A DNA stretch of 26,778 bases, taken from positions 1 to 26,778 of the forward strand of contig JAFCCL010000001.1 in assembly GCA_017610205.1 (NCBI GenBank), given 5' to 3'. A program made the position numbers and the translations under genes. Numbering within the stretch: the stretch's first letter is position 1; each line of letters starts with the position of its first letter. The stretch is from Candidatus Iainarchaeum sp. (lineage in GTDB: Archaea > Iainarchaeota > Iainarchaeia > Iainarchaeales > GCA-2688035). The notes under the pieces are model-generated. The model was not told where the DNA came from, did no database searches, and saw nothing but the letters and a program-made list of their open reading frames with translations. Of the stretch, positions 1 to 18,742 are shown one piece after another.

Positions 1-3000
1 TTGGCTGCTTCCATTGCTCGGAGAGCTAATGCTTGCAATTGGGCCTGTTTTGTCTATTGCTAAATAAATCAAATGCGCATTCTCATTGTGGTCCATTGTG
101 TCGTCTGACCAGTACCAGATTGAGTGGTTTCCGTCTGTGTTGAGTACAATGCCAATATTCACGTCTTCTTTGTTCCAGGAAAGCTGGGCGTTTGCGTCAT
201 TCACGCTGTAGTAAAAGTTTTTGCAGCCGCTTCCTTCCTCGTCAGTGCAGGAGAATTGTATGTTTGCATCTACCTTCTGCCAAACATTGTTGCCGTCCAC
301 GTTGTCAATTGTCACAGGAGCATTGTTGTCTATGCCAAGAGCATTTAACGTGGTATTAAAGTCGGCGTTTCCAACGGAATCAATTGCTGTTACCCCTACA
401 TAATAGTTGCCGTCTGACACATTCATTATGTTCCAGTCCTGCGAACACTTGCGCATATTAATTAAGCCATAATTATAATCCATTGAAATTTCGGCAGCGG
501 TTAGTGCCCTGTTATAAACCTTTACTTCTTCGATGAGGCCGTCGAACATCGTGATAGAATCAGCATCCCTTCTTCCTATTTGAACTGCGGCATTACTTTG
601 CCCGTTGAGGTCAGTTGAGGTATAAGTTGATTGTTTATCTTGTGCTCCATTTAAGTAGAGGGTTGCTGTTGTTGAATTAACAGTAACAGCGCCGTAATAC
701 CATTGGTTAGAGGAAAGAGTGGTGTTTCCGGTTAAACTACGGCCGTCAGGGGTAAATCTGTAAGCTTTAAGTGTGGAATTTCGTATATACAATATAAAAG
801 TGCCATCATTGCCTGAATTATACTTAGAGATAATTGTTTGTGGGACTGAAACGTTTTTGGTATTAAACCAAGCTGAAATGGTATATGCGTTGGTTCTTGC
901 AACGTTGAAGTCTTGGTCTGTTCCGCTTGCATCAACCATTATGTAGTCATTCACTCCATCCAAGTACAGCGCATTAGTATCCCATTTCCCTGCCGCATTA
1001 TTATCTGCTCCTCCTATGTTTTGCCCGTGGTTTCCTCTCCAGCTGCTGTCCACTGCCTGGATGCTGTTTCCGTCGTTTCCGTTGAATTGCCAGTATCCAA
1101 CCAGATTTACATCATACTCATTGTCTGAGTTTAGGTCTAGTGGCGCTGTTATGCAGTGGTTTCCATCCAGGTTAAGGCCTGATTTGATTTTTGTGCTTTG
1201 CCCATAGTCCATCGAAGTAGAATACCATACCTCAGCCGTTTTTGGGTCAAAGTTGTCCCAATCCGAGACATTGAAGTCTATTGTCAGGTTTCCGTCTACG
1301 GGGTGAGAGAAAAACGGAAATTCACCTTGTGCGTCGTATCCATCCACTGCGGAAACATTGGCGTCAGGAACTCTGTTGTACTCAACGCCCACATCATTCA
1401 GGTAGGCATACCCTATTGGATAGTTTGCGTCTGTGTGCACAAAGTTTCCTTTGTACTGCACGTACTGCATTGGGTTGCCTTTCAGGTACTGACCCATTAT
1501 TTCGCCGGCGGAAAGGGCGCGGTTGTAGACTTTGACGGAGTCGATTAGGCCGGAGAAAAAATTTAAATTTTGTCCTTGTCTTCTACCCAAATCTAACGAA
1601 GACAAGTCAAGAGTACCGATAGAGCTATTTGAACCAACAAGAGTTCCATTAAAATATAAATCAGCCCTAATTCCGTCCGTTACAATACAAACTACATGAG
1701 CCCACTCTCCTATTGCTGCAGGTGCTGTTGTAGGATTTATATCGTAACCTGCATCACCACTATATAAATTATATCTATTATTATATATTATCAAATTTGA
1801 TCTACTATTTGTTGCACTCCAAATCCGTTGACTGTTTGTGAGAATATTTGGTTTCACCCAGACAGAAATGGTAAAATTGGATGTCATATAAGGGAGACTA
1901 ACATATCCATCCACCCCATCGAAGTACCCTGCCCTTGTTTTGTCTTTTCCTGTTCCGTTTATGTCTGCTCCGCCTGTTAGCGTTCCGTCGTTTCCGTACC
2001 CTGATGCGTCGTATAGCGTGCTTCCGTCTTTGTCGTTGAAGTTTATGTCGAGTACAAGCCCAACATTTGAGTCCAGCGAGTGATAGCGGTTGCCTACATC
2101 AAATTCTGCCCAGTTGCCGTCGTTGAGGCCTGAGCAGGATTGGTCGTTGCAAGTTCTGACTGAGAGGTTTAGGTCGTTTAGGCCGGCGGAGTACAAGGTG
2201 CGGACTTCGTCGGGGGTTAATGCTTTATTGTAGATGCGGAGTTCGTCTATGAGACCGGAGAAGTAAGTTGTGTCGGATATTTTTCCGATTTGAACAGTGT
2301 TTCCGTTAATATAAACCGGGAATTGGGAAGGGCTTGATTCTATTCCGTTAATATACCTTTTTTCTGCTGCCAGCCTTACGCCTGTGTTCCCCCCTGCGCT
2401 TGTGGTTCCGCCGTCGGCAGCATTTACATCCCCATCTGTTATATCGTATCTAACAACTGTCTGGCTATCGAACGAGCCGCTTGTTCCTGCTTCATCCAAT
2501 TTCCAGTACACACCTGTAATAGCACCATCCTCTGCCATTATCGCTGCACGTATATCGTCTGGGTCGTAACCGGCTCCATTGATTGCAGAAGATAGGCTTT
2601 CTGCAAAGGCTTGGTCTACTGTACCTACGGCTGATAAATCGAGGACTGCAAAGAAGCCGAATTTGGCGGTAGTTTTGCCACCAGAAGTAGTATGAGCCCC
2701 TGCTCCTAATCTAATTAAAGTAGGTTGAACTAAAGCAAGACTATCAAACCAATCATTACCTATTAATACTCCATCAACAAGATACCATCCTACATTATTA
2801 AAAACAAAAGCTGTATTATGAATTTGATTTTCATTGAATGTGAAACTACTATAAAACCAATCAGTTCCAGTCCAAACTGTCTTATAAAGATTCGGGGAAT
2901 TTTCGCGTATGAAGTTTAGGCCCTTGTCGCTTGTTGTTTCTGCACTAAATAATCTTTCATAATTGCTCGTATCCGAATCTGCATTAACAACCTGAACAAT

Positions 3001-6000
3001 CGCAAGCTTGCCGTCCCGCAAGTCATTTAGGTAATTCGTTGGGGTTGTCAAGTCAATGTAACCATCTGTTCCGTCTGTGTGAATGCCGGGAACCTCTCCA
3101 ACCCAAACATCGTGAGTCCAGGAAGAGGCTGTTGAATCCTTGTGCCATAAAGAGGTTGTATTTTTATCCTGTATTATTGTAACCTCAACATATTCATCAA
3201 TTCCATTCAAGGCCAGTGCATTTGTATCATCCCATCCTAATCCGTTGTTGTCTGCTCCGTTTATCATTAATCCGTTTAGTTCTGCGTTGTTGTCGCATCT
3301 TGCAAGGTTTCCTGTTGCGTTGTTGTCATTAAAACGATACCAGGCTATGAGGTTTTGGTCCATTGTGTCAAGTTCTGTTAGTTGTTTTGAGCCGAATAGT
3401 GCGCTCCATATGAGTCCTAGGATTGTTGCCGGGTGGTACATGTCAATTATTTTACTATAGTATGTTGCGTTTGTCCATCCGCCGTTGTAGTCTGCCCTGA
3501 TTTCGGATGCCGAGAGTACAACATCATAAATTTTTAGTTCTTCGATTAGGCCGTCAAAGGCTCTGTCGCCTGTTGACCTGTTTCCGATGAACACGTTTGT
3601 TGTTCCTGCTGTTGGTGTGCCTGAATCTTGATTTGCAGTTCCATTCAAAATTCCATTTATATAGAAGTTAGCAATTCCGCCAGAGTTTCTTTTTACACAA
3701 ACGTGTTGCCAAACATCAAAATTAATTGCACTTGCGGAAGTTAAAACAAATGTAGAACCATCAGAAGTAAACTGTACTGTATTATTATTACTTATTAAGA
3801 ACTTAAAATTTCCATTATCAACTATTCTTCCATTACCTCCACCACCTAAACCATAAGGATAAATCCAAGCACATATCGTGGTTGTGCTTGTTCCAATGAA
3901 GTCGCTTTGTGTTGTAATTGCATCATCAACTCCGTCAAAGTACCCTGCGTTCGTGTCCCATAGTCCCCATGCGTTGATGTCTGCTCCGTTTACTAGCAGT
4001 CCGTTGTGGTCTCCGCCTGCAATGTCTTTTATTCCTGTTGCGCTGGAGTTTGTGTCGTTAAAGTTATAGTATGCCACCAGGCCTTCTCCTTTTTTGTTGC
4101 GGTTGTACTCGTTTGCGATTTCGGTTGCGCTTAGGGCGCGGTTGAAGATTTTGACGGAGGATATTTGGCCGTTGAATTGGGTGAACATTCCAGCATCTAG
4201 ACTGCCAATATAAAGGAGCTGTCCTGTATAAGCGAGTTCGGTTTCGAGTGTGAATTCTTCGGTTATGCCGTTAACTGTAATGGATACAAATTCGCCTTTT
4301 CTGTATTTTGCTACCACGTGATTCCATTGGTTAAGGGACACTTTTTCTGTAGAGATATAATCGGTATATGCTGCTCCATCACTAAGACAAATGACAATTC
4401 TTTCATTACTCGATATCATAAATTCATAATTTCTGTTTACGGTGGGGCCGTTGAAACCCAAAATGTCCTGATTTTTGCTTTCAGTTGGCTTGACCCATGC
4501 CATTAAGGTAAACTCATTCTCAACATTCAGACTTGTATTATCTACAACCTTAACATAGTCATCCACTCCATCAAAGAACCCTGCATTCGTGTCAAAAAAC
4601 CAGCTTCCGTTTGAGTCTGCTCCGTTTTTCCAGGTTCCGTTGTTGTTGTTGCCTGATGAGTCTAGTGCTACTGTTGCGTTGTTTGTGTCTAGTTTCCAGT
4701 ATCCTACGAGTCCGCTGTTTGGGTAGTATTTTGTTGGGGGTGTTAGTTCGCCGCTTGCCATGATGTTTTCGTCGGTGAGTTGTTTGGTGTAGTTGAAGTC
4801 TATTCCTTGGCCTTCCTGTGGTGGTTCTGTTGTGGTGTTGTCTATTACTGCGAGGTTTGTGGTTGCTTTAAAGTTTGCGTCTGTGCTGCTGTCTCTCAAT
4901 TCAATCAGAATGTAGTATTGTCCTTTGTTTGTGTTCATAATGTTCCAGTCCCAGCTGCATTTTGAGACGTTGTTGTCCCATTTTTGTGATGGGCAGACGC
5001 CTGTTGTCAGGTTTAAGTCCTCTACTATTACATTTCCGGTTCCTTGGGTTCTGCTGGTTGAGTAGTTTATGTCTACTGTCATTCTTTCGTTTTGAGGGTT
5101 TTGGACGTTGAAGTCTATTGCCAGATTGTGGTCAGTACTGTATCTGAATTGCGGCAGGGGTTCACTTACCGGGTTGCCGGCAATCTTTGTAATATTCAAA
5201 TCTGGCAGGGTCTGGTTTACCCTCATGTTCTGTGTTGTGGTATTAAAGTCTGCGTTTCCAACGGAATCAATGGCTGTTACCCCTACATAGTAATTGCCGT
5301 CGGAGACGTTCATTATGTTCCAGTCGTGCGAACACTTGCGCATATTAACCAAGCCATAGCTGTAATCCATTGAAATTTCTTCTGCGGAAAGGGCGCGATT
5401 GTAGATTTTTAGGGATTCGATGAGGCCGTCGAAGGGGTCAACCCCTAAATCTGGAGAATAGCTACCAATTGCTAGACTTGTTGTTGGGTCTATTGCTCCT
5501 GTAACAGTCAAATTTACAGATTTGTCTTCTGAACCATCCAAATATATTTTTGCTTTTGAGTTGCTCGTATCTCGGATAAAGCATATGTGATACCACTGGT
5601 TAGCAATTAATGAAGTTACCCCTGCAGTGGCTTGAAAATTCGTGCCATCTCCTAAGTCAATACGAATCGTATTGGTTGAAGTCTCGAAGTATATTTCATA
5701 ACTTTCTCTTGTAGCTGTAGCCCCTGACCTATGGCTTACAATCCTTGTTTTTACTGACGTGGAAGCTCTTTTTATCCATGTGCAGATTGTGAAATCGCCA
5801 GAGAGAACCAAATCGCTATTATCCGCCACATCAACATAGTCATCAACTCCATCAAAAAACCCTGCATTCGTGTCCCATTTCCCTTGTGCATTATTGTCTG
5901 CTCCGTTGATGTATTGCCCGTGGTTGTGCCTCCAGCTACTGTCCCATGCCCTTATGTTGTTTGTATCTGCTCCGTTGAATTGCCAGTATCCTACCAGATT

Positions 6001-9000
6001 AACGTCGTATTCGTTGTCTGAGTTTAGGTCTAGTGGGGCTGTTATGCAGTGGTTTCCGTCCAGGTTAAGGCCTGATTTGATTTTTGTGCTTTGCCCATAG
6101 TCCTTTGAAGTAGAATACCATACCTCAGCCGTTTTTGGGTCAAAGTTGTCCCAATCCGAGACATTGAAGTCTATTGTCAGGTTGTTGTCTACTGGGTACG
6201 AGAAGAACGGGAATACTCCCCCTGCATCGTAGCCGTCTACCGCAGAAACGTTTGCATCGGGTACTCTGTTGTACTCTATGCCAACGTCGTTCAGGTAAGC
6301 GTATCCTATTGGGTAATTGCTATCAGTGTGCATAAATTCTCCTTTGTATTGCACATACTTCATTGGGCTGCCCTTCAAGTATTGTCCCATGATTTCGCCG
6401 GCGGAAAGGGAGCGGTTGTAGATTTTTACGTTGTCTATTTGGCCGGGGAATAAGCTATCTGCAGGGAATAAAGCACCTATAAGATTATCGCCACTTTTGG
6501 AAGTGATAGGACCGCTTGCAGTGCTATCTTCCGCTACATTTACACCATCTACATATAATATTGCTGTAGAGCCATTGTATGTTCCAACAGCAAAATACCA
6601 AACTCCTGCAGATACTGGAGAAGAAACTACACCAAAACTATTATCTCCTCCACTTGTTTTTCCATTCCAATAAACCGAAGTCGTTAATGTACTTAATCTA
6701 TATCCGTCTTGTCCATGACCTCCACGAGATACAATTCCCCTACCTGATACTATTGTATTATATTTAATCCAAGCTGAAACAGTTATTTCGTTAGGGGCAT
6801 CTAATACATCTCCAACATTAACATACCCGCCCACTCCATCAAAGAACCCTGCCCTTGTTTTGTCTTTTCCTAATCCGTTTATGTCTGCTCCGCCTATTAA
6901 TAGCCCGTTGTTTCCTTGCCCGCTTGCGTCGAGTACGCCTGAGCCGTCCCCATTCGTATCATTAAAGTTTATGTCAAGTACAAGCCCAACATTTGCGTCA
7001 AGCGAGTGATAGCGGTTGCCTACATCAAATTCTGCCCAGTTGCCGTCGTTTAAGCCGCTACAGCTTGGGTCGTTGCAGATTCTGACAGAGAGGTTTAGGT
7101 CGTTTACGCCGGCAGAGTAGATTGTGCGAACTTCGTCGGCATCCAAAGCTCTGTCGTAGATGCGGACTTCGTCTATGAGGCCGTTGAATGAATAGGTATT
7201 CGGAGAGGACTCGCCTGACCCAAAACCGCATCCAATACCCAAAGGTCCGGCTGTGCCTAATAAGGGGTTTAAGCCCAGGCTTCCAGTGTCGCTTAGTGTG
7301 CCATCAAGATAAGTGTTGACAGTATCGTTTGAGTAGGTGACAACAACATGATGCCAAGCATTAGTGCTAATAATGTGTTGGTCATCAGTAAACGTTTGCC
7401 AGGTTCCGCCAGAATCCTTGCCCCTAAATTCCATATAACCAGAATTAGTAATATTAAACCAATATTGTACTTCTTCTGGACTATGGGTTCTGTCTGCTTT
7501 TTCTACAATTGTACTCCAATCACTCCCAATGATACCTATCCAACTATTTCCTTTAACCCAGGCACTGATTGTTAGATTATTTGTAATATTCAAATCTTCG
7601 GAATGTGGAACTTCAACATAATTATTAACTCCATCAAAGTACCCTGCATTTGTATCATCCCATCCTAACCCATTTATGTCTGCTCCGCTTGTTAGCGTTC
7701 CGTCGTTGCCGCTTGATGAGCTGTCGTATACTGTTGTTCCGCTTTTTGTGTTGAATCTGTGCCACATTACGAGGTTTTGGTCCATTGTGTCAAGTTCTGT
7801 TAGTTGTTTTGAGCCAAACAGCGCGTCCCATTTGATTCCTTGTATTGTTGCGGTGTGGTTCATGTCTTTGACTTCGCTGTAATAAGTTGCGTTGTTCCAG
7901 GCGTTGTAGTCGCGTTGGATTTCGGAGGCGGTTAGGGCTCGGTCGTAGATTTTTAGTTCTTCGATGTAGCCAGTGAAATCTCTTTCGCCGCCATATGGCG
8001 TTCCGACAATTGCAAAGCTTGATGCTGCATTCATGTCTCCAGTAAAAATCGAGTCAGTGCCTTTCAAGACACCGTTTACATAAAGTTTGCAGTTTGATTC
8101 AACTTCCCACGTAGCGATTACATGTGTCCATTTATTTGGTTCAATTCCATTTGGAAGTGTTATGTAACAATTGTTTCCTCCTGAATCTGCCGCTTCATCG
8201 ATTTTAAGAACAAGGGCATTGCTTGTCGTGTGTTGAATGCAAAAACCTGATTCATGAAATACTTCATTGCTAACAAGCTTTGCCCAGTCCCCCGGGCTTC
8301 CGTCACTGTAAAACCAGAGTGACACTGTTCCTTGCTTTGCTTTCTCGCTTAAATTAAAGTCGTCTATTATAACTTGGTCATTCACTCCATCAAAGAACCC
8401 TGCATTCGTGTCCCATAGCCCCCATGCATTGATGTCTGCTCCGCCCATTAGGATTCCGTTTGTGTCGTCAGGATTTTGCCCCACTTGATTCAATATTGCC
8501 GAGCCGTCTGAGTTGGTGTCGTTGAAGTTATAGTATAAAAAGAGCCCGTTTCCGTCGAGGTTGCGGTTGTACTCGTTTGCAATTTCGGTTGCATTCAAAG
8601 CGCGGTTGAAGATTTTGACGGAGGCGAGCTGGCCGGAGAAAAGTTGATCTCCTAATTGATCAGCACCAATAGTCAAAGCAGTACTCATATCAAAATCCCA
8701 ATTACTTATTATTTTTGTATCTGGCTCTGCAATTCCATTAACATATAATGTCATAAATCCACTTGCATCCAAAGTCCCTGTAAGCATTTCCCAATCACCT
8801 GAAGGAGAAGCAGCACTCTCACAAGTTAGGCAAACAGAAGAATTACAAACTATAAATTGCCATTTATTTGAATTAGCCTGCTTTATTATAAAACCGTTAC
8901 TCCCTCTCCTACGAAAAACAGTATGGCTAGCACTGTCTATGATATTTGATTTTGCCCAAGCATTAACTGTTAATTCATTTATAGAGTCAAAAGAAGCATC

Positions 9001-10341
9001 ATCTTTCACTTCAACATAGTCATTAACCCCATCAAAGAATCCTGCATTCTGGTCAAAGAACCATGTTCCGTTTGAGTCTGCTCCGTTTTTCCATGTTCCG
9101 TTGTTTCCTTGCCCGCTTGAGTCTGTTGCGACTGCTTCTCCGGTGTTTGTGTCGAGTTTCCAGTATCCGACTAGTCCTCCTGCCGGCTGGTACTTTGATG
9201 GAGTCATTGTTTCTCCTGTTGGCATCACATTGTTGTCCCATTTGACTTTTGTGTGGTTGAAGTCAAATGCAATGCCTGTATTGTAGTCGCCTGTTGTTGT
9301 GCCTGTTGTCCATGTTGCCCCAGCCATATTGTAGGCGAAATCGGCTGCCATTCCAAAAATGAATTTGAGAGCGTGCTTTCCTGTTGTAAGCACAAGATTT
9401 GAAAGAGTGGCTTCTTCTGAGCAATTGAAGTTTGGAAAAATCAGTTGCCTAGCCGCCACTGCCGGCTGGTCAGGGTACAACCCCCTTTCAGGGGGTTGAA
9501 CATGCTCCGTCAAAGTATTTTGAACACCAGATTCTTCAGGGGTAAACGATTCTTGGACTTCGACGGAGTTTTCATGTTCCATCAGAGTATTTTCGGTACC
9601 GTGTTTTTGAGAAGTAAATACTTCGATGGAGCCGCAGTAAAGTGTTTGAAACACAATATCTGTTCCAAACACGGTTTCCTCAATTGCACTGATTATCAGG
9701 TCAGCTGTTCCCTGTGTAGTGAACTGCACATCCCAGTTTTCACCAACTTGCGGGTAGGATTGCGGATTGATGACATCAATCTCTGAAAATCCAAAATCCG
9801 ACGCTCCCGGCTGGTCTGAGTACAACCCCCTTTCAGGGGGTTGAACGTGCTCCGTCAAAGTATCCTGAACACCAGATTCTTCAGGGGTAAACGATTCTTG
9901 GACTTCGATGGAGTTATTTAAATCTGCTTCACACGAAGTGTTTTGGCCCCCTGCGTAAATCGCTGGCAGGCAAAGTGTTGCCAAAAGCACTATGATTGAG
10001 AAGAATAATGGTAGAGTGGTGTAGTGGTTGGCGGTTGTTGTTTTTTGGGAAGATGTTAAACACCAAAACCCGTTATGTATAAGCCACCTGTTTTTTGGCT
10101 TTTTTTCGTTTGTTTTGTTTCTTTCCTTGCTTCTTTCCTTGTTTTCGGGTGCTTTTGTTTCAAGCACGGTTTTTTTGCTGTTGCAAATCTGGTACTTTTT
10201 GGCTTGTGCTTTTTGGTGCTTTTTTGCAGGCAGTGTCTGGTTGTGTGTGGTGCTTTTTGCGGTCGGTGCCTGTTTTTTTGCGGGATTTTTGTGGATTGTT
10301 TTTTTTAGTATTGTGTGGTTTGCCTGTTTTCCCAAGTTCAA
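1..10341 (-). CDS. Giant surface/adhesin protein with 10 LamG (concanavalin A-like, Laminin_G_3) domains and Ig-like linkers; 3'-partial, >3440 aa
   Basis: Segments translated by hand at both ends and in the middle fall in one frame (codon first bases at multiples of 3), from TTG 10341 (GGGGG upstream) to the window edge (...AIDKTGPIASISSPSNGSSQ). The absence of long minus-strand ORFs here in the track fits an unbroken frame. Hydrophobic segment TTLPLFFSIIVLLATLCLPAIYA lies at ~9952-10020. LamG motifs recur: GLVGYWKLD, AGFFDGVxDY, FxGxIDExKIYNRALSAxEI. Exact start is uncertain. Confidence 0.9.
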   Translation of the reverse strand, partial: MNLGKQANHTILKKTIHKNPAKKQAPTAKSTTHNQTLPAKKHQKAQAKKYQICNSKKTVLETKAPENKERSKERNKTNEKKPKNRWLIHNGFWCLTSSQKTTTANHYTTLPLFFSIIVLLATLCLPAIYAGGQNTSCEADLNNSIEVQESFTPEESGVQDTLTEHVQPPERGLYSDQPGASDFGFSEIDVINPQSYPQVGENWDVQFTTQGTADLIISAIEETVFGTDIVFQTLYCGSIEVFTSQKHGTENTLMEHENSVEVQESFTPEESGVQNTLTEHVQPPERGLYPDQPAVAARQLIFPNFNCSEEATLSNLVLTTGKHALKFIFGMAADFAYNMAGATWTTGTTTGDYNTGIAFDFNHTKVKWDNNVMPTGETMTPSKYQPAGGLVGYWKLDTNTGEAVATDSSGQGNNGTWKNGADSNGTWFFDQNAGFFDGVNDYVEVKDDASFDSINELTVNAWAKSNIIDSASHTVFRRRGSNGFIIKQANSNKWQFIVCNSSVCLTCESAASPSGDWEMLTGTLDASGFMTLYVNGIAEPDTKIISNWDFDMSTALTIGADQLGDQLFSGQLASVKIFNRALNATEIANEYNRNLDGNGLFLYYNFNDTNSDGSAILNQVGQNPDDTNGILMGGADINAWGLWDTNAGFFDGVNDQVIIDDFNLSEKAKQGTVSLWFYSDGSPGDWAKLVSNEVFHESGFCIQHTTSNALVLKIDEAADSGGNNCYITLPNGIEPNKWTHVIATWEVESNCKLYVNGVLKGTDSIFTGDMNAASSFAIVGTPYGGERDFTGYIEELKIYDRALTASEIQRDYNAWNNATYYSEVKDMNHTATIQGIKWDALFGSKQLTELDTMDQNLVMWHRFNTKSGTTVYDSSSSGNDGTLTSGADINGLGWDDTNAGYFDGVNNYVEVPHSEDLNITNNLTISAWVKGNSWIGIIGSDWSTIVEKADRTHSPEEVQYWFNITNSGYMEFRGKDSGGTWQTFTDDQHIISTNAWHHVVVTYSNDTVNTYLDGTLSDTGSLGLNPLLGTAGPLGIGCGFGSGESSPNTYSFNGLIDEVRIYDRALDADEVRTIYSAGVNDLNLSVRICNDPSCSGLNDGNWAEFDVGNRYHSLDANVGLVLDINFNDTNGDGSGVLDASGQGNNGLLIGGADINGLGKDKTRAGFFDGVGGYVNVGDVLDAPNEITVSAWIKYNTIVSGRGIVSRGGHGQDGYRLSTLTTSVYWNGKTSGGDNSFGVVSSPVSAGVWYFAVGTYNGSTAILYVDGVNVAEDSTASGPITSKSGDNLIGALFPADSLFPGQIDNVKIYNRSLSAGEIMGQYLKGSPMKYVQYKGEFMHTDSNYPIGYAYLNDVGIEYNRVPDANVSAVDGYDAGGVFPFFSYPVDNNLTIDFNVSDWDNFDPKTAEVWYSTSKDYGQSTKIKSGLNLDGNHCITAPLDLNSDNEYDVNLVGYWQFNGADTNNIRAWDSSWRHNHGQYINGADNNAQGKWDTNAGFFDGVDDYVDVADNSDLVLSGDFTICTWIKRASTSVKTRIVSHRSGATATRESYEIYFETSTNTIRIDLGDGTNFQATAGVTSLIANQWYHICFIRDTSNSKAKIYLDGSEDKSVNLTVTGAIDPTTSLAIGSYSPDLGVDPFDGLIESLKIYNRALSAEEISMDYSYGLVNMRKCSHDWNIMNVSDGNYYVGVTAIDSVGNADFNTTTQNMRVNQTLPDLNITKIAGNPVSEPLPQFRYSTDHNLAIDFNVQNPQNERMTVDINYSTSRTQGTGNVIVEDLNLTTGVCPSQKWDNNVSKCSWDWNIMNTNKGQYYILIELRDSSTDANFKATTNLAVIDNTTTEPPQEGQGIDFNYTKQLTDENIMASGELTPPTKYYPNSGLVGYWKLDTNNATVALDSSGNNNNGTWKNGADSNGSWFFDTNAGFFDGVDDYVKVVDNTSLNVENEFTLMAWVKPTESKNQDILGFNGPTVNRNYEFMISSNERIVICLSDGAAYTDYISTEKVSLNQWNHVVAKYRKGEFVSITVNGITEEFTLETELAYTGQLLYIGSLDAGMFTQFNGQISSVKIFNRALSATEIANEYNRNKKGEGLVAYYNFNDTNSSATGIKDIAGGDHNGLLVNGADINAWGLWDTNAGYFDGVDDAITTQSDFIGTSTTTICAWIYPYGLGGGGNGRIVDNGNFKFLISNNNTVQFTSDGSTFVLTSASAINFDVWQHVCVKRNSGGIANFYINGILNGTANQDSGTPTAGTTNVFIGNRSTGDRAFDGLIEELKIYDVVLSASEIRADYNGGWTNATYYSKIIDMYHPATILGLIWSALFGSKQLTELDTMDQNLIAWYRFNDNNATGNLARCDNNAELNGLMINGADNNGLGWDDTNALALNGIDEYVEVTIIQDKNTTSLWHKDSTASSWTHDVWVGEVPGIHTDGTDGYIDLTTPTNYLNDLRDGKLAIVQVVNADSDTSNYERLFSAETTSDKGLNFIRENSPNLYKTVWTGTDWFYSSFTFNENQIHNTAFVFNNVGWYLVDGVLIGNDWFDSLALVQPTLIRLGAGAHTTSGGKTTAKFGFFAVLDLSAVGTVDQAFAESLSSAINGAGYDPDDIRAAIMAEDGAITGVYWKLDEAGTSGSFDSQTVVRYDITDGDVNAADGGTTSAGGNTGVRLAAEKRYINGIESSPSQFPVYINGNTVQIGKISDTTYFSGLIDELRIYNKALTPDEVRTLYSAGLNDLNLSVRTCNDQSCSGLNDGNWAEFDVGNRYHSLDSNVGLVLDINFNDKDGSTLYDASGYGNDGTLTGGADINGTGKDKTRAGYFDGVDGYVSLPYMTSNFTISVWVKPNILTNSQRIWSATNSRSNLIIYNNRYNLYSGDAGYDINPTTAPAAIGEWAHVVCIVTDGIRADLYFNGTLVGSNSSIGTLDLSSLDLGRRQGQNLNFFSGLIDSVKVYNRALSAGEIMGQYLKGNPMQYVQYKGNFVHTDANYPIGYAYLNDVGVEYNRVPDANVSAVDGYDAQGEFPFFSHPVDGNLTIDFNVSDWDNFDPKTAEVWYSTSMDYGQSTKIKSGLNLDGNHCITAPLDLNSDNEYDVNLVGYWQFNGNDGNSIQAVDSSWRGNHGQNIGGADNNAAGKWDTNALYLDGVNDYIMVDASGTDQDFNVARTNAYTISAWFNTKNVSVPQTIISKYNSGNDGTFILYIRNSTLKAYRFTPDGRSLTGNTTLSSNQWYYGAVTVNSTTATLYLNGAQDKQSTYTSTDLNGQSNAAVQIGRRDADSITMFDGLIEEVKVYNRALTAAEISMDYNYGLINMRKCSQDWNIMNVSDGNYYVGVTAIDSVGNADFNTTLNALGIDNNAPVTIDNVDGNNVWQKVDANIQFSCTDEEGSGCKNFYYSVNDANAQLSWNKEDVNIGIVLNTDGNHSIWYWSDDTMDHNENAHLIYLAIDKTGPIASISSPSNGSSQ
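350..4730 (-). repeat. Copy 2 of the intragenic five-LamG block duplication (LamG 6-10)
   Basis: Linkers match copy 1 in the same order, e.g. 1121-1290 vs 6014-6183 (near-identical), 2040-2200 vs 6965-7140, 3350-3410 vs 7770-7830, 4090-4170 vs 8560-8640. Confidence 0.9.
5240..9190 (-). repeat. Copy 1 of the intragenic five-LamG block duplication (LamG 1-5)
   Basis: Same linker order as copy 2: SATEIANEYNRN-like, LFGSKQLTELDTMDQNL, CSGLNDGNWAEFDVGNRYHSLD, DWDNFDPKTAEVWYST, RKCSxDWNIMNVSDGNYYVG. Confidence 0.9.
9462..9570. repeat. 109-bp palindromic element, copy 1 (in-frame within giant 1)
   Basis: 103/109 identical to 9807-9915. Contains the perfect hairpin CAACCCCCT-TTC-AGGGGGTTG (9478-9498) and the inverted repeat CTCCGTCAAAGT...ACTTCGACGGAG. 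Confidence 0.85.
9573..9631. repeat. Degenerate third copy of the stem part of the palindromic element
   Basis: catgttccatcagagtatttt...aaatacttcgatggag has the same ends as copy 1 and is itself an inverted repeat. Confidence 0.6.
9807..9915. repeat. 109-bp palindromic element, copy 2 (in-frame within giant 1)
   Basis: Direct repeat of 9462-9570 at a 345-bp offset; hairpin at 9823-9843. Confidence 0.85.
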
Positions 10342-11773: not shown

Positions 11774-13036
11774 TTATTTTTTGGTGAGTAGCCATTTCCA
11801 GAGCGGGATGAATTTTATTTTTGCTTTTTTGCCGTACCATTCTGCAGTTTCTTCTGCTTCGTAATCGTTTGTTAGCACTATCAGTTCGCTGCATTTGAGT
11901 TCTTGTTTTGCTTTTATTAGTGCGCGTATTTCTCTTTTTTTTGTGTTTGGATTGGAAATATCATAGCAAACCTGGATTAGCTTGGTTATTTTTGTGCGTT
12001 CTTTTATTACGAAGTCCACTTCCTCGTGCTGTGGGTTTTTCCAGTAATAAAAATCTAGTTTTCCGTCAATTTCTGCTTTTTTCAAATGCACTGCAACAAT
12101 GTTCTCATATAGCTTGCCGGTGTCCGGTGTTGATTTGGTTGATTTTGCGGAAATGAAGCCGTTGTCAATTGCGTAAATTTTTTTGTTGGAAGCCAATTGC
12201 TCCCTTGTTTTGAAAGAGAATCTTTTCAGTGAAAAGAGCAGGAAGGCTTCTTCTAAATAGCCCAAATATTTCTGGATTGTGTGTGCGCTTTTTGATTTTG
12301 TGAGTTCTGCCAGTCGCTGGAAAGAGTACTCGCTGCCAACATTTGACAAGAGAAATTGAGCCAGGTTTTCTATTGCATTGGGTTTTCTTATCTTGTATCT
12401 TTTTACAATGTCCTTGAAGAGAATTGAATCAAACAGCGTGGACAAATATTCGTTGTGGTTAATGTTCTTGACCAATGGTTCGGGGTATCCGCCGTGTGTT
12501 GAATATTCAAATAATTTTTCGCTTTTTTGTGTGGTAGTTAATTCCTGGTTTTGTTGTTTTATGAATTCTTTGAATGAAAATGGGAAAACAATTATTTGCA
12601 GGTGCCTGCCGGTAAGGTGTGTTGCAAGTTCTTTGCTTAGCAGGTTTGAATTGCTACCGGTAATGAATAGTTTTCTTCCCTGCCTTTGCAGCCTGTTGGC
12701 GACTAATTCCCATTTGTCAAAGTTTTGAATCTCGTCAAGCAGGAGAAGTTCAGGAGAACCGTATAGCGAATCAGCTACTGCGAGCAGTTCGTCAAAGTCT
12801 TTTGCTGCCACAAGCTTTTCGTCATCAAAATTAATGTAACCAAATTTTGCGTTTTTCTTGAGCCAGTGAACAGCAAAAAAAGACTTCCCGGCCCTTCTGG
12901 GTCCAATAATTACCCGAATCAGGTTATCTTTGACAGAGTCTATTTTGAGTTTGGTGTCTCTTTCAATGTAGAGTTCTTTAAACCGATTTTCCAGTTCTGC
13001 CTTTTGCTGAACCAAAACATTTCTAACATTGTTCAT
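11774..13036 (-). CDS. AAA+ ATPase, COG1373 (AAA_14 + DUF4143)
   Basis: Walker A GPRRAGKS, Walker B LLLLDEIQ, ITGSN, LTGRH, GGYPE, KKIYAIDNG, LYEN, EVDFV. ATG 13036 preferred over TTG 13045 because it lies 25 nt from the TTTATAAA box. Confidence 0.92.
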   Translation of the reverse strand: MNNVRNVLVQQKAELENRFKELYIERDTKLKIDSVKDNLIRVIIGPRRAGKSFFAVHWLKKNAKFGYINFDDEKLVAAKDFDELLAVADSLYGSPELLLLDEIQNFDKWELVANRLQRQGRKLFITGSNSNLLSKELATHLTGRHLQIIVFPFSFKEFIKQQNQELTTTQKSEKLFEYSTHGGYPEPLVKNINHNEYLSTLFDSILFKDIVKRYKIRKPNAIENLAQFLLSNVGSEYSFQRLAELTKSKSAHTIQKYLGYLEEAFLLFSLKRFSFKTREQLASNKKIYAIDNGFISAKSTKSTPDTGKLYENIVAVHLKKAEIDGKLDFYYWKNPQHEEVDFVIKERTKITKLIQVCYDISNPNTKKREIRALIKAKQELKCSELIVLTNDYEAEETAEWYGKKAKIKFIPLWKWLLTKK

Positions 13037-13060
13037 TAGAAACAATATAATACATAAAAG

Positions 13061-13354: not shown

Positions 13355-14497
13355 TTATTTGCCGCTGTTATATTCTGCTTGGATTTCTTCTGCTGTTAGT
13401 GCGCGGTTGAAGATTTTGGCGGAGTCGATGAGGCCAGTCATGGCGTGATAACTGCCACACCAACTAGTATTGTATATTCCTAAATTAACCTTGGAAATAT
13501 TGCCATAAGAACCAGAAAGATTAGACGCGCTCTGATATAACTTGCCGTCTACGTATGTTTGATGGGTAAGAGCTGGCAAGTTAAAAACATAAGCAAAATG
13601 GTGCCAAGAATTATCTGCAGGTACATTTGTTGCTATTGGCGCATTTTCTCCAGAATTATTAATAACATAAGACCCATAGTTTCTTATCCAAAAACCGCTG
13701 CAACAACCAGCCATATAGCACTGCGTTTGAAATCTAACAATTGCTCCGCTAGCAGTAATTTTCAACCAAGTTGTAAAAGTAAATTTATCTTGAGGTAAAT
13801 TATATATTGGGTTTGACGAAGTTATATTTTGGTAAGCTCCAGTTGGACAAGGCGTACTAGCAGTTTTCGCAGATGGTAAATAATTAAGACCCTTGCCATT
13901 TATTCCATTGTCCCACATGATATTGGTCCCAATACCGCCAATGCTAAGTGTGTTTTTGTTTCCGCTTTCATCTGCTGTTTCTGTTCCGGTTCCTTCGTTG
14001 AACCAGTATGCTGCCACTAGCCCTGGTGGCCCTCCGTTTCCTGATTTGATTTCTGTTTTTCTGTCCAAGCCTGTTGCATCAGTGTATTCTATGAATATGC
14101 TGCTGTTTTCTCCGTTTTTTTGAACTGCAAGGTTTTCCAGGAGGATTTCGCTGCCAGCGGTTAGTTCTAGTGGGAAGTCGGTTGCTGGGTCTATTGTTTG
14201 CCTGTTTAGTGTGTATCCTGTTAGAGTGTCGGCTATGTCTCCGGAAAATGTGATGGAATTGATTGTGATTTTTCCGCCTGTTATGTTTTGCAATACTAGG
14301 CTTGCTGTGTTTTCTGTTATTGAGCTTCCTTTTAGCATGATTTTTGAAGGGTCAGAGCTTGAAAAACTGGCAGTAGTAGAAGTTGGGTTTATGATGAAAA
14401 CAAGCACTCCAACAACACTGGCAATTATTACCAGTGCCCAGCCGTATGTCATTAAGTATTCTAATCCGGATTGTGCTTTTTGGTTCATTTGTTTCAA
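13355..14497 (-). CDS. Type IV pilin-like protein (class III signal peptide) with C-terminal LamG domain
   Basis: N-terminal QKA|QSGLEYLMTYGWALVIIASVVGVLVFII with E at +5; C-terminal GLVAAYWFNEGTG...WHHFAYV...YVDG...GLIDSAKIFNRALTAEEI. Start is TTG 14497 or ATG 14488. Confidence 0.88.
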   Translation of the reverse strand: MKQMNQKAQSGLEYLMTYGWALVIIASVVGVLVFIINPTSTTASFSSSDPSKIMLKGSSITENTASLVLQNITGGKITINSITFSGDIADTLTGYTLNRQTIDPATDFPLELTAGSEILLENLAVQKNGENSSIFIEYTDATGLDRKTEIKSGNGGPPGLVAAYWFNEGTGTETADESGNKNTLSIGGIGTNIMWDNGINGKGLNYLPSAKTASTPCPTGAYQNITSSNPIYNLPQDKFTFTTWLKITASGAIVRFQTQCYMAGCCSGFWIRNYGSYVINNSGENAPIATNVPADNSWHHFAYVFNLPALTHQTYVDGKLYQSASNLSGSYGNISKVNLGIYNTSWCGSYHAMTGLIDSAKIFNRALTAEEIQAEYNSGK

Positions 14498-14863: not shown

Positions 14864-15661
14864 TTATTTCAATTTGTATTTGAATTCTTTTGCTATTGCT
14901 TTGATTGCTGTTTTGTAATTTATTGGCTTGTTTGTCAGGCTGGTTATTTCTTGTTCCCATTTTGAGTATATTCTGTTCGCGTTTTTGAAGATTTTTTCTG
15001 TTTTGTATTGCAGGTCTGCTTCTTTGAGTTTTGTTTTGACCAGTTTTGAGTCAATTTTTTGTTTTGATTTGATTATTTGGTATGTGTCAAAGTAGTCTCT
15101 GGGTTGGTTTCTTTGGAATAGCGCGCGTATCTTTTCAGCAACTAGTTCTGTTTGGTTCAGCATTGTTACACTGAATTTTGGAATTTCTTTGTAAAAGTGT
15201 TTTGCTTGTTTTTTCTCTGGTTTCAGGTGGATTTTTGTGTGCGCATTCAGGTCAACGTTGATGTATTCTTTTTCCCTGAAATAGCTTTTGTAGTAAACCT
15301 GTATTCTCACAAATTTGTCTGTTTTCTTGTCTGTTTTCTTGTCTGTTTTCTTGTCTGTTTTCTTGTCTGTTTTAATCTTTGTAAATAACTCCTGATTTTC
15401 TTTAACTATTTTCCCGATTTTCTTTTTCACTTCGTTTGTTTTTGCTTTGCAGCTGAAGTCCAAGTCCTCGCTTAACCTTGTGTGGTTTAATACAAGTTTG
15501 TTTAATGCTGTGCCACCTTTGAAGTAAATCCCTTCAATGTCTTTGATTAAATAAAGTAGAACTGTAAGAAAGTAGTCTTTTTCCAGGTAAGTAATGTTGA
15601 ATCCTTTCTCTCCGGCCAGGTAGCGGAGTTTTGTTTCTGTTATTCTTTTGATTTCAGCCAT
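14864..15661 (-). CDS. abiEii: AbiEii/AbiGii family nucleotidyltransferase toxin (type IV TA)
   Basis: LEKDY, FKGGTAL, RLSEDLDFS, AEKIRAL...RDYFD motifs; overlaps the upstream antitoxin gene by 22 nt. Confidence 0.9.
   Translation of the reverse strand: MAEIKRITETKLRYLAGEKGFNITYLEKDYFLTVLLYLIKDIEGIYFKGGTALNKLVLNHTRLSEDLDFSCKAKTNEVKKKIGKIVKENQELFTKIKTDKKTDKKTDKKTDKKTDKFVRIQVYYKSYFREKEYINVDLNAHTKIHLKPEKKQAKHFYKEIPKFSVTMLNQTELVAEKIRALFQRNQPRDYFDTYQIIKSKQKIDSKLVKTKLKEADLQYKTEKIFKNANRIYSKWEQEITSLTNKPINYKTAIKAIAKEFKYKLK
15315..15373. repeat. 12-bp in-frame tandem repeat, about 5 copies, encoding (KTDK)5
   Basis: ttgtctgttttc repeated inside the toxin gene. Confidence 0.95.
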
Positions 15662-16140
15662 TCTTTTACCTTCTTTTTTGTTGCAATATTGAATCCGTGG
15701 CTCTTGATTTGTTTCCTTTCAAAACCTGTAATTCTATGTTTTCTTAGTGTCTTGAAGACAATTTTGTGGTTGAATATTTCCCTTCCTCCCCTTTTGTTTG
15801 TGCAATAGACTTCTGTTTTTGTTGGAATCTGGTCAATAAGTTTCCAGTAGTGCGCTGCAGCGTAACCGTTAATGTAGTAGTTTTTTCCGTTAAATATTTC
15901 GTCTACTAGGATGAAAGGGTGTTCTGACCAATAGCCTTTGAAGGCCTTCACTGGGATAAGGTAGTACTTCGATTTGTTGAGTTTAATTATTCTGCCTTTA
16001 TTCTTAAGTTTGTGAAGGTAAACCGAAACTTCGTTGTAGTTCTTGAAGAAACGCTTTATGTCTTTTCTTGTAAAAAAGAATTTTTCGTCAAGTTCAAGAA
16101 ATGAAACAATTTCTATTTCTTTTCCAGAAAGTCCATTCAT
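15640..16140 (-). CDS. abiEi: AbiEi family antitoxin / wHTH transcriptional regulator (type IV TA)
   Basis: LHKLKNKGRIIKLNKSKY winged HTH; YYINGYAAAHYWKLIDQIP AbiEi-type motif; directly upstream of AbiEii. Confidence 0.82.
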   Translation of the reverse strand: MNGLSGKEIEIVSFLELDEKFFFTRKDIKRFFKNYNEVSVYLHKLKNKGRIIKLNKSKYYLIPVKAFKGYWSEHPFILVDEIFNGKNYYINGYAAAHYWKLIDQIPTKTEVYCTNKRGGREIFNHKIVFKTLRKHRITGFERKQIKSHGFNIATKKKVKEWLKSKE

Positions 16141-16404: not shown

Positions 16405-17655
16405 TTAATTAGGCAGCTGTTTGTTGTTTGCTTTTGAGGGCTTGTTTTTGGCTTGCATCCATTTCCATGCTGGCTTAATGGCAATTTCTTTGTTGTTTTT
16501 TTGAAGTGTGTCTTCTTGGTTGTATGTAAGTATTAGGCCTTTTTTTAAATTGAATTTTTTCAATGCTTCTAAGAGTCCTGAAACTTCTCTTTTTAGGTTG
16601 TCTTCTGTGAGGGAGTAGCATACTTGTATTGCTCCCGCTATTTTTTCTTTTTCTTTGAAAACAAAGTCGCATTCGCCTTTTTCTTTGAAGTAAAAAATTT
16701 CTTTGTTTTTTCTCCTTAAGTGCAAAAAGACCTGGTTTTCCAGCATTCTTCCTTTGTCTTTTGAAAAGGATATTGAGTTTGTTGCCGATAATCCGTTGTC
16801 TATGGAATAGATTTTTCTTGGATTTATTTGCTGTTTTTTGAAAGAGTAATCGAATTTTGGGGTTGTGAATATTAGGTAGGCGTCTTCAAAAAACGAAATG
16901 TAATCGATAATGCTTTGTACTGAAGCTACTGAAAACATTTTTTTTAAAGAGTTGTATGAGAATTCTTTGCCAACGTTGCTGATTAGATATATTGCTAGTT
17001 TTTTTAACAGCCTGGAGTTTCTTATGCCAAACCTTATTGCCACGTCACGCATAATGACATCTTTGAGTAATTCTTGCAGTACATAATTTTGTTTCTTTTC
17101 AAGGTATTCTGGAAATCCGCCGTTTTCAAAGTATTTTGCAAAAGAGTTTTTTGATGGTTTGAATTTATGGTATTTTAAGAATTCTTTGAAAGAGAAAGGA
17201 AATAGTTCGTGGCTGAGGTGCCTGCCGGTAAGCAGTGTTCCGAGTTCTCTGCTTAAAAGTGATGCGTTAGAGCCTGTCAACACAACCTTTTCCTTTTTGT
17301 CTATAAGCCAACGTACAAACTTTTCCCATTTTGGCACGGTTTGTATTTCGTCAAAAAAATAAATTCCGTTCTTTCCATAGTGTTCCTTAAAAATCTCGTT
17401 TGCCTTTGTAAAGTCCTGCAGCCCAAAACCATCTAAGCGAACGTCCTCCAAATTAAGGTAGTAAAATTCTTTTTCTCTCTTTAAGAGCTGTTTTAAAAGC
17501 GTGCTTTTTCCGCAGCGCCGTATGCCTGAAATGGCTATTGCAAAGGAAGTCATTGGCTTAATAACTGCCAAGTCTTCTCTTGGAACCGTTTTTTCGCCCA
17601 GAGCAAGCTCTTTTCTTTGGGCTGCAATTATTTCCTCCAGTTTCTCTTTTAACAT
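16405..17655 (-). CDS. AAA+ ATPase, COG1373 (AAA_14 + DUF4143)
   Basis: GIRRCGKS, YFFDEIQ, LTGSNAS, LTGRH, GGFPE, RKIYSIDNG, MLEN, ECDFV; paralogue of 11774-13036. Confidence 0.93.
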   Translation of the reverse strand: MLKEKLEEIIAAQRKELALGEKTVPREDLAVIKPMTSFAIAISGIRRCGKSTLLKQLLKREKEFYYLNLEDVRLDGFGLQDFTKANEIFKEHYGKNGIYFFDEIQTVPKWEKFVRWLIDKKEKVVLTGSNASLLSRELGTLLTGRHLSHELFPFSFKEFLKYHKFKPSKNSFAKYFENGGFPEYLEKKQNYVLQELLKDVIMRDVAIRFGIRNSRLLKKLAIYLISNVGKEFSYNSLKKMFSVASVQSIIDYISFFEDAYLIFTTPKFDYSFKKQQINPRKIYSIDNGLSATNSISFSKDKGRMLENQVFLHLRRKNKEIFYFKEKGECDFVFKEKEKIAGAIQVCYSLTEDNLKREVSGLLEALKKFNLKKGLILTYNQEDTLQKNNKEIAIKPAWKWMQAKNKPSKANNKQLPN

Positions 17656-17995: not shown

Positions 17996-18742
17996 TTAAT
18001 CCCTTTTCCTGGTTTTGTAAAGCAGCAGGACAGAAATCAGAACTATGGCGATAATAACTGCGCCAAGCGTGAGCAGCAGGTCGGGGTTTTTGAATTTTTG
18101 GCACTGGTTATTTATACAGACCATGTCTGTTTTGCAGGTTGTTCCAGTTGCTAGGTTGCTGTAAGCGCATTTTCCTTCAGTGCAGTAATCCCTAGTGCAT
18201 GGATTGAAGTCATTGCATTTAATGCCAGTGCAGTCGTTTTCTGAAACTGGGATTAGGGCAGTTGGGGTTTCCATTCCAGCAAAGGCTGTCTCAATCGCTT
18301 TTAGCCTACTTTCATCAAGTTCAACGCTGTAGCTCACCCTTTTCACCCCGTCTACTTCTATTATCCCAAAAGAAAACTTGATTACTGGGTCGGTTTCCAA
18401 GACAAGGAAATTCAAATCGCTTTTCACGACCCCAACATGCTGTGCGATTTCTTTTGGGATTGTTTCAATCAAGGAAATGTTTTCAAGCGCATTGCCTGAA
18501 ACGTTCTGCAGGTTTAAGGTAAACCTGATATTATAGCCTGTTATACCTTCTGTTCCAAGCAAGGCAACGGTTTTCATTTCCCTGCTGAAGAACAGGTCTG
18601 CCTGCTCTGCAACCTTTTTCTCGATTGACGAGCCACCTGGGCCTACTTCAACTATTACAAGGTTTTTTGATGGCAACACATAGCCTTGCACAGGCATGCA
18701 CAAAAAAGCAAGCAATAACAAGGCAATCGCTACTCTTTTCAT
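17996..18742 (-). CDS. Secreted, membrane-anchored protein with Cys-rich (Dictyostelium repeat-like CNDxNxCTxDxC) region; paralogue of the giant 2 C-terminal anchor module
   Basis: Signal peptide MKRVAIALLLLAFLCMPVQG; CNDFNPCTRDYCTEGKC; C-terminal TM helix with basic tail; ATGA overlap with the upstream gene. Confidence 0.85.
   Translation of the reverse strand: MKRVAIALLLLAFLCMPVQGYVLPSKNLVIVEVGPGGSSIEKKVAEQADLFFSREMKTVALLGTEGITGYNIRFTLNLQNVSGNALENISLIETIPKEIAQHVGVVKSDLNFLVLETDPVIKFSFGIIEVDGVKRVSYSVELDESRLKAIETAFAGMETPTALIPVSENDCTGIKCNDFNPCTRDYCTEGKCAYSNLATGTTCKTDMVCINNQCQKFKNPDLLLTLGAVIIAIVLISVLLLYKTRKRD

Follow-up and report, generated by a model that had tools for sequence, protein, structure and literature searches.

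The window analyzed here comprises the first 26,778 bases of one contig (C3) of a Candidatus Iainarchaeum genome assembly (1.37 Mb, 24 contigs, 92% complete). Its reverse strand carries, between positions 1 and 10341, a single open frame of 3447 amino acids that runs off the start of the contig. Ten stretches of this giant ORF match the Pfam family Laminin_G_3 (LamG_3, PF13385; 802 bits at a cut-off of 27.6), which places it in the Laminin_G_3/concanavalin A-like lectin superfamily, and weaker, overlapping Pfam matches are to Laminin_G_2, pentraxin, and a sialidase lectin domain. The eighth stretch spans model positions 96 to 150 only. BLAST of one half of the protein against the other and global alignment of residues 341–1835 with residues 1829–3447 resolve the ten domains into two tandem blocks of five, A and B, a duplication recognized in an earlier reading of the DNA alone (the original prediction). 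Within each block, five domain interiors, or cores (1 to 5 in block A, 6 to 10 in block B, one to each slot), alternate with conserved frameworks (U1 to U5 and D5), each of which extends from the final strand and helix of one LamG domain across a linker into the first strands of the next. We find that the cores and the frameworks of this gene have separate histories.

Between the two blocks, the frameworks are 61 to 88% identical in protein and 72 to 97% identical in DNA (20-codon windows). The five pairs of cores are 14 to 29% identical in protein, and their third codon positions agree at the random level. Along the global alignment, protein identity alternates between 60 to 100% in framework segments and 15 to 35% in core segments. 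The change from one regime to the other takes place within 10 codons at ten of ten edges (5/5 N-edges and 5/5 C-edges). At the N-edge, marked by the motif FFDGVxDY, mean DNA identity passes from 0.86 through 0.73 to 0.39, and at the C-edge, marked by FxGxI, it climbs from 0.40 to 0.79. The core positions given in the original prediction agree with ours to within a few bases; it had found the cores impossible to align by eye as DNA, and the loss of identity is step-like rather than gradual. Its claim of nearly identical linkers holds for the segments 1121–1290 and 6014–6183, which differ at 4 of 170 bases, but not for the frameworks overall, where synonymous divergence between blocks (dS) amounts to 0.46 to 0.85.

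Substitution patterns likewise separate the two kinds of segment. The ratio of nonsynonymous to synonymous divergence (dN/dS) in the frameworks is 0.13 to 0.38, and their dS, taken in 30-codon windows, ranges from 0.06 up to saturation. In the cores, dS is saturated and dN, at 0.78 to 0.92, is no lower than the dS of the frameworks on either side; had the cores diverged in place, a dN/dS of approximately 1.1 to 1.5 would be required over whole folded cores in five of five pairs. At sites with an identical residue and a degenerate codon, the two blocks use the same codon at 71% of 494 framework positions (46% expected by chance), whereas in the cores this fraction is 38% of 149 positions (40% expected by chance). 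Point mutation in place had been judged a poor explanation in the original prediction, and both the core dN and the chance-level codon agreement bear this out. Between species, the same-codon fraction of the frameworks is 39 to 56%, and the protein identity of U1 to U4 is about equal between blocks (61–81%) and between species (52–80%). The higher codon agreement between blocks indicates that the frameworks of A and B share more recent DNA ancestry than do those of the different species.

The shared ancestry is distributed as a patchwork. The longest exact repeat between the blocks measures 77 nt, others measure 50, 45, and 45 nt, and U5 contains a run of 25 identical codons (P = 0.0008). The 30-codon window of U5 in which dS is 0.06 adjoins 60 codons in which dS is saturated and dN is 0.10; this latter tract appears to be old DNA kept by purifying selection. 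In the framework trees, the U5 copies of blocks A and B are supported sisters, as are the D5 copies (98/96 and 97/94, respectively), and the block B copy of U2 instead clusters with sequences of other species (90/94). The patchwork of the frameworks points to repeated gene conversion between them. Concerted evolution is evident in a likeness that is greater within the genome than between genomes and in tract-like heterogeneity, with the exception of U2. Discordant segments separated by sharp breakpoints, the mark of a mosaic gene, occur both in the giant gene and in its close relatives.

In total, 13 proteins share the slot-specific frameworks, and the order U1-U2-U3-U4-U5-D5 is kept in 13 of 13. 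The family consists of the giant protein, P0002, P0003 (apparently the G003:C38 product), P0004, P0013, P0022, P0122 (G017), P0123, P0124, and ORFs of genomes G003 and G005 (the genome studied being G000). Relative to the giant gene, the frameworks of these proteins are 45 to 80% identical, and their cores show no recognizable relation. P0003 and P0004 are 85 to 100% identical lengthwise, and the cores of slots 1, 2, and 5 share 58, 80, and 84% identity, whereas those of slots 3 and 4 share 10 to 35% and have sharp edges. The edges at slot 4 fall exactly at FFDGxND and IDNVKIYNR, and at slot 3 the replaced piece starts with the first LamG strand. P0123 and the ORF G005a are 70 to 100% identical over approximately 900 amino acids, save for one repeat-length indel, but their slot 4 cores, and that end of the slot 3 cores which is visible, are only 15 to 45% identical. 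The two independent pairs of close orthologues provide direct comparative evidence for the exchange of whole cores. Among same-slot pairs with a mean flank identity of at least 0.75 (n = 8), three cores have an identity of 0.58 to 0.84 and five have an identity of 0.19 to 0.27, and the slot 4 and slot 5 pairs of the giant gene fall into the low class. This bimodal distribution argues for discrete events rather than graded divergence.

Related cores are also found in different slots. A propeller-bearing core occupies slot 5 of P0002 and slot 2 of P0013 and G005c; its copies are 49 to 55% identical over 439 to 514 amino acids, and the frameworks upstream and downstream of it stay specific to the slot. 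LamG cores with nested YDGNLF(A/V)G repeats lie at residues 1589–2027 of P0002, at 357–854 of P0013, and at 370–916 of the L017 (G005:C70) ORF, and the repeat array probably folds as a beta-propeller. The slot 3 core of P0004 is 42 to 43% identical to the slot 2 cores of P0003 and P0004, and its slot 4 core is 42% identical to slot 5 of P0022 and 41% identical to slot 1 of G003b. Cross-slot relatives are thus only 41 to 55% identical, which points to old events. When P0004, a near-duplicate of P0003, was left out of the permutation, the nearest neighbor of a core in another protein occupied the same slot for 10 of 39 cores, with 7.3 obtained from shuffled labels (P = 0.2); with P0004 included, the count was 15 of 44 against 8.2 expected (P = 0.02). 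Slot 2 of G005c and slot 3 of G003b were dropped from the slot comparison because their downstream framework fell under the filter of 40% identity and 60% coverage. Mean core scores were 29.0 bits for same-slot pairs and 28.1 bits for different-slot pairs.

Against a reference of 603 long host ORFs, sampled as 3000 random segments of 125 codons, it is the frameworks, not the cores, that are compositionally atypical. The GC content of third codon positions (GC3) is 0.29 in the cores, 0.324 ± 0.064 in the host, and 0.52 in the frameworks (z of +1.4 to +4.4). The coding-strand AT skew is 0.07 in the cores, 0.14 ± 0.17 in the host, and 0.28 in the frameworks, and the Asn codons AAT and AAC stand at 84:30 in the cores and 56:141 in the frameworks, with 50% in the host. 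The GC3 contrast recurs in five of the five ORFs of relatives examined (frameworks, 0.44–0.55; cores, 0.30–0.42). The local counts behind the original prediction are correct: 24 A and 16 T at 3721–3780, 5 A and 27 T at 4621–4680, eight AAT and one AAC among the Asn codons of core 1, and a GC content that differs between cores (0.35–0.43). Its conclusions that the cores look foreign and have lost the strand skew of the host are nevertheless contradicted by the host reference. Translational selection is rejected as the cause of the framework GC3, being unlikely because highly expressed genes (EF1A, EF2, thermosome, L2, and the ribosomal protein cluster) have a GC3 of only 0.26 to 0.37. Recombination, or GC-biased gene conversion, is a candidate cause of the enrichment.

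Potential donors of the cores were sought within and outside the genome. Of its 23 LamG_3 matches, 10 belong to the giant gene, and none of the other 13 closely resembles any core; in tblastn searches (E ≤ 1e-3) of the 92%-complete genome, none of the ten cores had a relative of more than 31% identity elsewhere. Silent donor copies of the kind that accompany cassette variation were not found, the best non-self match being at 31%. The genome contains no near-identical template copy of any core and no match to the reverse transcriptase family RVT_1 (control genomes do match), and Pfam identified no recombinase among the nine other ORFs of the window. Outside the genome, the cores were compared with 120 large homologues and with the long ORFs of the loci of 13 relatives. 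The best relative of core 7 is 47% identical and belongs to a distant protein, P0021, with unrelated flanks; apart from the domain nested in core 8, described below, the best matches of the remaining cores reach at most 38%. Donor candidates for replaced cores are only distant (41–55% identical). The silent pool, the recent external donor, and the antibody-like programmed mechanism of the original prediction therefore find no support in the genome, the window, or the relatives searched. Neither a public sequencing run nor a strain-level relative was found, the best protein matches being 47 to 54% identical and the best metagenome-contig match (with U5 as the query) 44% identical, and a further protein search from P0003 returned no close relative beyond P0004. 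The longest exact DNA matches of the frameworks to relatives are 17 to 30 nt, and recent transfer of frameworks between species is not indicated by matches of this length.

Only the C-terminal third of core 8 matches the LamG model, and a separate pentraxin/LamG-like domain of approximately 245 amino acids is nested in this core. In a representative library the nested domain has 51 homologues, 45 of them at E ≤ 1e-10 and the best (P0242) 52% identical, in proteins of 93 to 1268 amino acids that lack the frameworks of the giant gene. Pfam and PHROGs gave no match for core 8 or its homologues other than P0244 (weak LamG) and P0248 (CBM_4_9), and a PDB sequence search with the core 8 profile returned nothing meaningful. 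The model of the domain (pTM 0.74) has pentraxin/LamG matches with a target-normalized TM of 0.5 to 0.6 and two added helices. A single-protein scan of viral contigs with core 8 gave no match, whereas an alignment-based scan identified a viral homologue, 39% identical, in the C-terminal half of a 552-amino acid ORF on a 44-kb IMG/VR contig. A LamG ORF lies two genes upstream of this viral ORF (L036:7155-8813), and endonuclease VII and small-terminase genes lie downstream; such a placement would suit a receptor-binding protein. Core 8 is thus a LamG frame that has received a jelly-roll module from a different context.

The AlphaFold model of domain 5 is of low confidence (pTM 0.66, mean pLDDT 60). 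Foldseek matches it to lectin-type jelly rolls with a probability of 1.0 and a TM of 0.5 to 0.58, among them trans-sialidase lectin domains, pentraxins, CBM40, and AbnA domain 4, and the models of domain 5 and core 8 both show the beta-sandwich jelly roll. The hydrophobic segment at residues 108–133 is probably a signal peptide or an anchor, and translation probably begins immediately before it. A segment of similar form opens P0003 and P0004, and P0002 ends in transmembrane-like segments; a C-terminal membrane anchor of the giant protein probably lies past the end of the contig. Near the N terminus, ahead of the LamG blocks, two 118-nt copies on the reverse strand (9453–9570 and 9798–9915), 92% identical and 345 nt apart, encode an acidic peptide repeat rich in Pro and Glu. 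The predicted product is probably a giant secreted or anchored lectin-array protein, of which the region encodes the extracellular part, with its ten LamG sandwiches set apart by Ig-like or linker spacers. Most likely it is an adhesin that binds glycans or a partner cell, a role in ligand binding being suggested by the fold. The named homologues belong to Nanoarchaeota, Woesearchaeota, Aenigmarchaeota, and candidate-phyla bacteria, and order-level relatives (more than 30 families) have genomes of 0.5 to 1.5 Mb. From these names and genome sizes, it is plausible that the organism is a small symbiotic archaeon, and the DPANN assignment of the original prediction is likewise plausible.

Table 1. 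Segments of the giant LamG gene and their coordinates in the window.
Feature	Position	Strand	Remarks
Giant ORF, ten LamG domains, C terminus beyond contig start	1..10341	-	open frame and Pfam
Hydrophobic N-terminal segment, residues 108-133	9943..10020	-	read from translation
Block A, five LamG slots, residues 381-1705	5227..9201	-	
Block B, five LamG slots, residues 1869-3335	337..4737	-	
Framework U1, block A, first LamG strands of slot 1	9010..9201	-	dS 0.53
Core 1, slot 1, block A	8641..9009	-	23% identical to core 6
Framework U2, block A	8368..8640	-	dS 0.73
Core 2, slot 2, block A	7978..8367	-	23% identical to core 7
Framework U3, block A	7612..7977	-	dS 0.85
Core 3, slot 3, block A	7189..7611	-	15% identical to core 8
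Framework U4, block A	6817..7188	-	dS 0.46
Core 4, slot 4, block A	6451..6816	-	20% identical to core 9, flanks 81-88%
Framework U5, block A, 207 aa including folded spacer	5830..6450	-	dS 0.79, dN/dS 0.13
Framework tract, residues 1328-1387	6181..6360	-	saturated dS, dN 0.10
Recent conversion tract (putative), 77 nt	6107..6183	-	identical to 1214-1290; surrounding 30 codons dS 0.06
Core 5, slot 5, block A	5434..5829	-	25-29% identical to core 10, flanks 84-88%
Framework D5, block A, with inter-block spacer and U1, block B	4549..5433	-	
Core 6, slot 1, block B	4177..4548	-	
Framework U2, block B	3913..4176	-	
Core 7, slot 2, block B	3559..3912	-	
Framework U3, block B	3187..3558	-	
Core 8, slot 3, block B, 308 aa	2263..3186	-	
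Separate pentraxin/LamG-like domain, ~245 aa, nested in core 8	2371..3096	-	
Framework U4, block B	1897..2262	-	
Core 9, slot 4, block B	1558..1896	-	
Framework U5, block B	937..1557	-	
Partner of the 77-nt identical tract	1214..1290	-	
Core 10, slot 5, block B	547..936	-	
Framework D5, block B, with Ig-like repeats	1..546	-	58-69% identical to 19810-20769 of the second giant gene

Four features of the data, namely an anatomy in which identity changes by steps, discordant histories, conversion tracts, and discrete replacements in relatives, are read here as the outcome of mosaic evolution. In this account, which we consider probable, recombination that joins sequences within the conserved LamG edges acts together with gene conversion of the frameworks. 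Under it, the slot-specific scaffold U1-U2-U3-U4-U5-D5 would be fixed in a small family, of which the giant gene carries two five-slot blocks. The frameworks would be held under purifying selection and re-homogenized at times by gene conversion between repeats, which may also account for their GC3 enrichment. The cores would escape homogenization, and occasionally recombination would exchange an entire core, in frame, for a module of LamG type that comes from elsewhere (another slot, a paralogue, or a separate lineage). The junctions would lie within or next to the edge motifs FFDGxxDY and FxGxIxxxKIYN, and the DNA of these motifs would serve as the recombination substrate. The gene would then present a constant frame that shows changing binding cores on an evolutionary, not a programmed, timescale. 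By analogy with the relatives, the giant gene's own cores may have been replaced rather than its frameworks converted.

Several observations weigh against this account. Blocks A and B, taken alone, fit core replacement and framework conversion alike; of the wholesale in-frame replacement put forward in the original prediction, the part that stands is discrete replacement in close orthologues, and for the blocks of the giant gene itself homogenization of the frameworks fits equally well. The best relatives of the giant gene are 47 to 54% identical, and replacement, seen in other members of the family only, is extended to it by analogy. The closest donor candidates found for replaced cores do not exceed 55% identity, which leaves no replacement event caught in progress. 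The edge DNA shared between slots or species offers 10 to 30 nt of exact identity, which is marginal for homologous recombination. Edges of the form FDG...DY and FxGxIDEVRIYNRAL also mark LamG_3 proteins that are unrelated to this family, P0005 and P0010 among them, so part of the identity step is ordinary family conservation. Many of the identical core residues may be chance alignments, which weakens the same-codon test; the framework trees of U1, U3, and U4 give no supported grouping; and the model of domain 5 is of low confidence.

Four other explanations were weighed on the same evidence. If differential constraint were the only factor, the blocks would have accumulated point mutations and small indels in place, without recombination, the linkers under purifying selection and the cores neutral or under diversifying selection. 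Purifying selection is real, as the framework dN/dS and the tracts of saturated dS with a dN of 0.10 attest, and by our arithmetic neutral change at a dS of approximately 0.7 would alone be enough to lower protein identity to some 20 to 25%; codon usage in the cores is host-like, and conservation of the edge motifs extends across the LamG_3 family. We nevertheless think this explanation improbable, because it demands a dN/dS of at least 1.1 to 1.5 over whole cores in every pair and is at odds with core synonymous sites at chance next to frameworks at 71%, with bimodal core identity at high flank identity, with retained cores (58–84%) beside replaced cores (10–35%) in one protein pair, with identities of 41 to 55% between cores of different slots, and with the patchy framework dS. 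Programmed cassette switching, that is, frequent exchange of cores within a lineage from a silent or external pool, would account for the conserved frame, the variable core, the step-like edges, the discrete replacement in close relatives, and a gene family that is sparse and organism specific. The absence of any donor above 31% identity for the ten cores, with 13 other LamG_3 matches that are not close, the lack of a reverse transcriptase in the genome and of a recombinase among the other window ORFs, and cross-slot relatives that point to old events together make it distinctly unlikely.

An assembly artefact, in which reads of different strains or paralogues were joined into a chimera via the repeated frameworks, draws some credit from the position of the giant gene at a contig end, from the exact repeats of 45 to 77 nt that the blocks share, and from other LamG genes that likewise lie at contig ends. 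We regard it as very unlikely: mis-joins could permute cores but not make ten distinct in-frame cores, the frame is open over 3447 amino acids, and independent assemblies from several sources show the same scaffold order with unrelated cores. A diversity-generating retroelement that hypermutates the cores deserves almost no credence, although such elements are known in small-genome archaea and target lectin-type folds. The 92%-complete genome has neither a reverse transcriptase (control genomes being positive) nor a near-identical template repeat of any core, and the cores differ by indels and by all base types to saturation rather than at template adenines; this candidate was rejected. Mosaic evolution also admits a more far-reaching form, which we offer as tentative and rather doubtful. 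Rather than structural spacers only, the frameworks may be maintained GC3-rich homology arms that allow LamG cores to pass in frame between slots, paralogues, and co-occurring lineages, and even divergent jelly-roll modules shared with phage proteins, such as the core 8 domain, might travel in this way; small-genome archaea would then hold, at the level of the population, a multi-slot "plug-in" receptor repertoire based on recombination, without silent cassettes or a retroelement. If so, recognition of a partner or host could be retuned much faster than by point mutation.

Tandem repeats undergo concerted evolution by gene conversion, including GC-biased conversion. The giant gene resembles such repeats in its synonymous likeness (71% within the genome against 39–56% between species), its patchy tracts, and its raised GC3, but differs in that conversion stops at the core edges and homogenizes about half of each repeat, with a GC bias that is presumed. 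Segmental gene conversion underlies antigenic variation in Neisseria pilE/pilS, Borrelia vlsE, Anaplasma msp2, and Mycoplasma genitalium MgPa. With these systems the giant gene shares conserved flanks, a hypervariable cassette, and in-frame replacement by recombination; unlike them, it has no silent donors in the genome, offers ten slots, and carries events that look old, with donors at most 55% identical. Mosaic or domain-shuffled bacterial adhesins and outer-membrane proteins (PMC10952558, PMC12175518, PMC5266723) are also binding surface proteins shaped by local recombination and domain exchange on a purifying background. Compared with these, the present gene is an archaeal giant with GC3-enriched frameworks, what it exchanges is the inside of a LamG sandwich, and the junctions lie within the first and last strands of the LamG domain itself. 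Polymorphic toxin systems (PMC3482391) similarly join a conserved part to a variable module exchanged by cassette recombination, but their variable part is a C-terminal toxin with standalone cassettes nearby, whereas here it consists of internal lectin cores and no cassettes were found.

Expanded, organism-specific LamG proteins of DPANN archaea are proposed, in passages of PMC5498576 and PMC7443923, to mediate attachment to a host. The LamG/ConA-like proteins described there for Mia14 ("ARMAN," PMC5498576) and Ca. Nanohalobium (PMC7443923) are alike in being large, secreted, and built of LamG jelly rolls; those passages mention no slot-specific framework, step boundaries, or core replacement, all of which are present here in a family of 13 proteins. 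Our literature search, to which supplementary files were external, returned papers on mosaic and domain-shuffled adhesins, together with a review in the field of antigenic variation (PMC4534519), but found no paper on a fixed scaffold with exchanged LamG cores. The combination is that of a mosaic, recombining surface protein with concerted evolution of its repeats, and the feature is real and non-random. For attached small-genome archaea, in which passages of the same two papers (PMC5498576, PMC7443923) link large LamG proteins to partner recognition, it would offer an architecture for diversifying specificity, made concrete in a conserved five-slot scaffold that holds unrelated lectin cores. 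It also suggests a natural design rule, by which LamG binding modules would be exchanged at the motifs FFDGxxDY and FxGxI.

The remainder of the window contains nine ORFs, with Pfam matches to two AAA_14/DUF4143 ATPases, an AbiEii toxin, and three further LamG proteins. LamG domains were counted in five of the ten window ORFs that were analyzed. The ORF of the AbiEii nucleotidyltransferase toxin (14864–15661, reverse strand) is overlapped by an ORF of 166 amino acids (15640–16140, reverse strand) that has no Pfam match and is possibly its antitoxin; the ATPase genes, at 11774–13045 and 16405–17655, flank this pair. A second giant gene (18739–24474, reverse strand; 1911 amino acids) encodes two LamG_3 stretches and DUF2341, and the Ig-like repeats that it shares with the first (19810–20769 and 1–546) probably explain the contig break at the start of the window. 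LamG_3 domains also lie at other contig ends of the genome (C11:381-845, C11:23449-23919, and C8:132-599) and may represent the missing C-terminal part of the giant gene or similar repeat-rich genes that break the assembly. The further LamG proteins of the window are encoded at 24446–26644 and 13355–14497, both on the reverse strand, and one of them joins an SdiA-regulated/phytase-like propeller to LamG.

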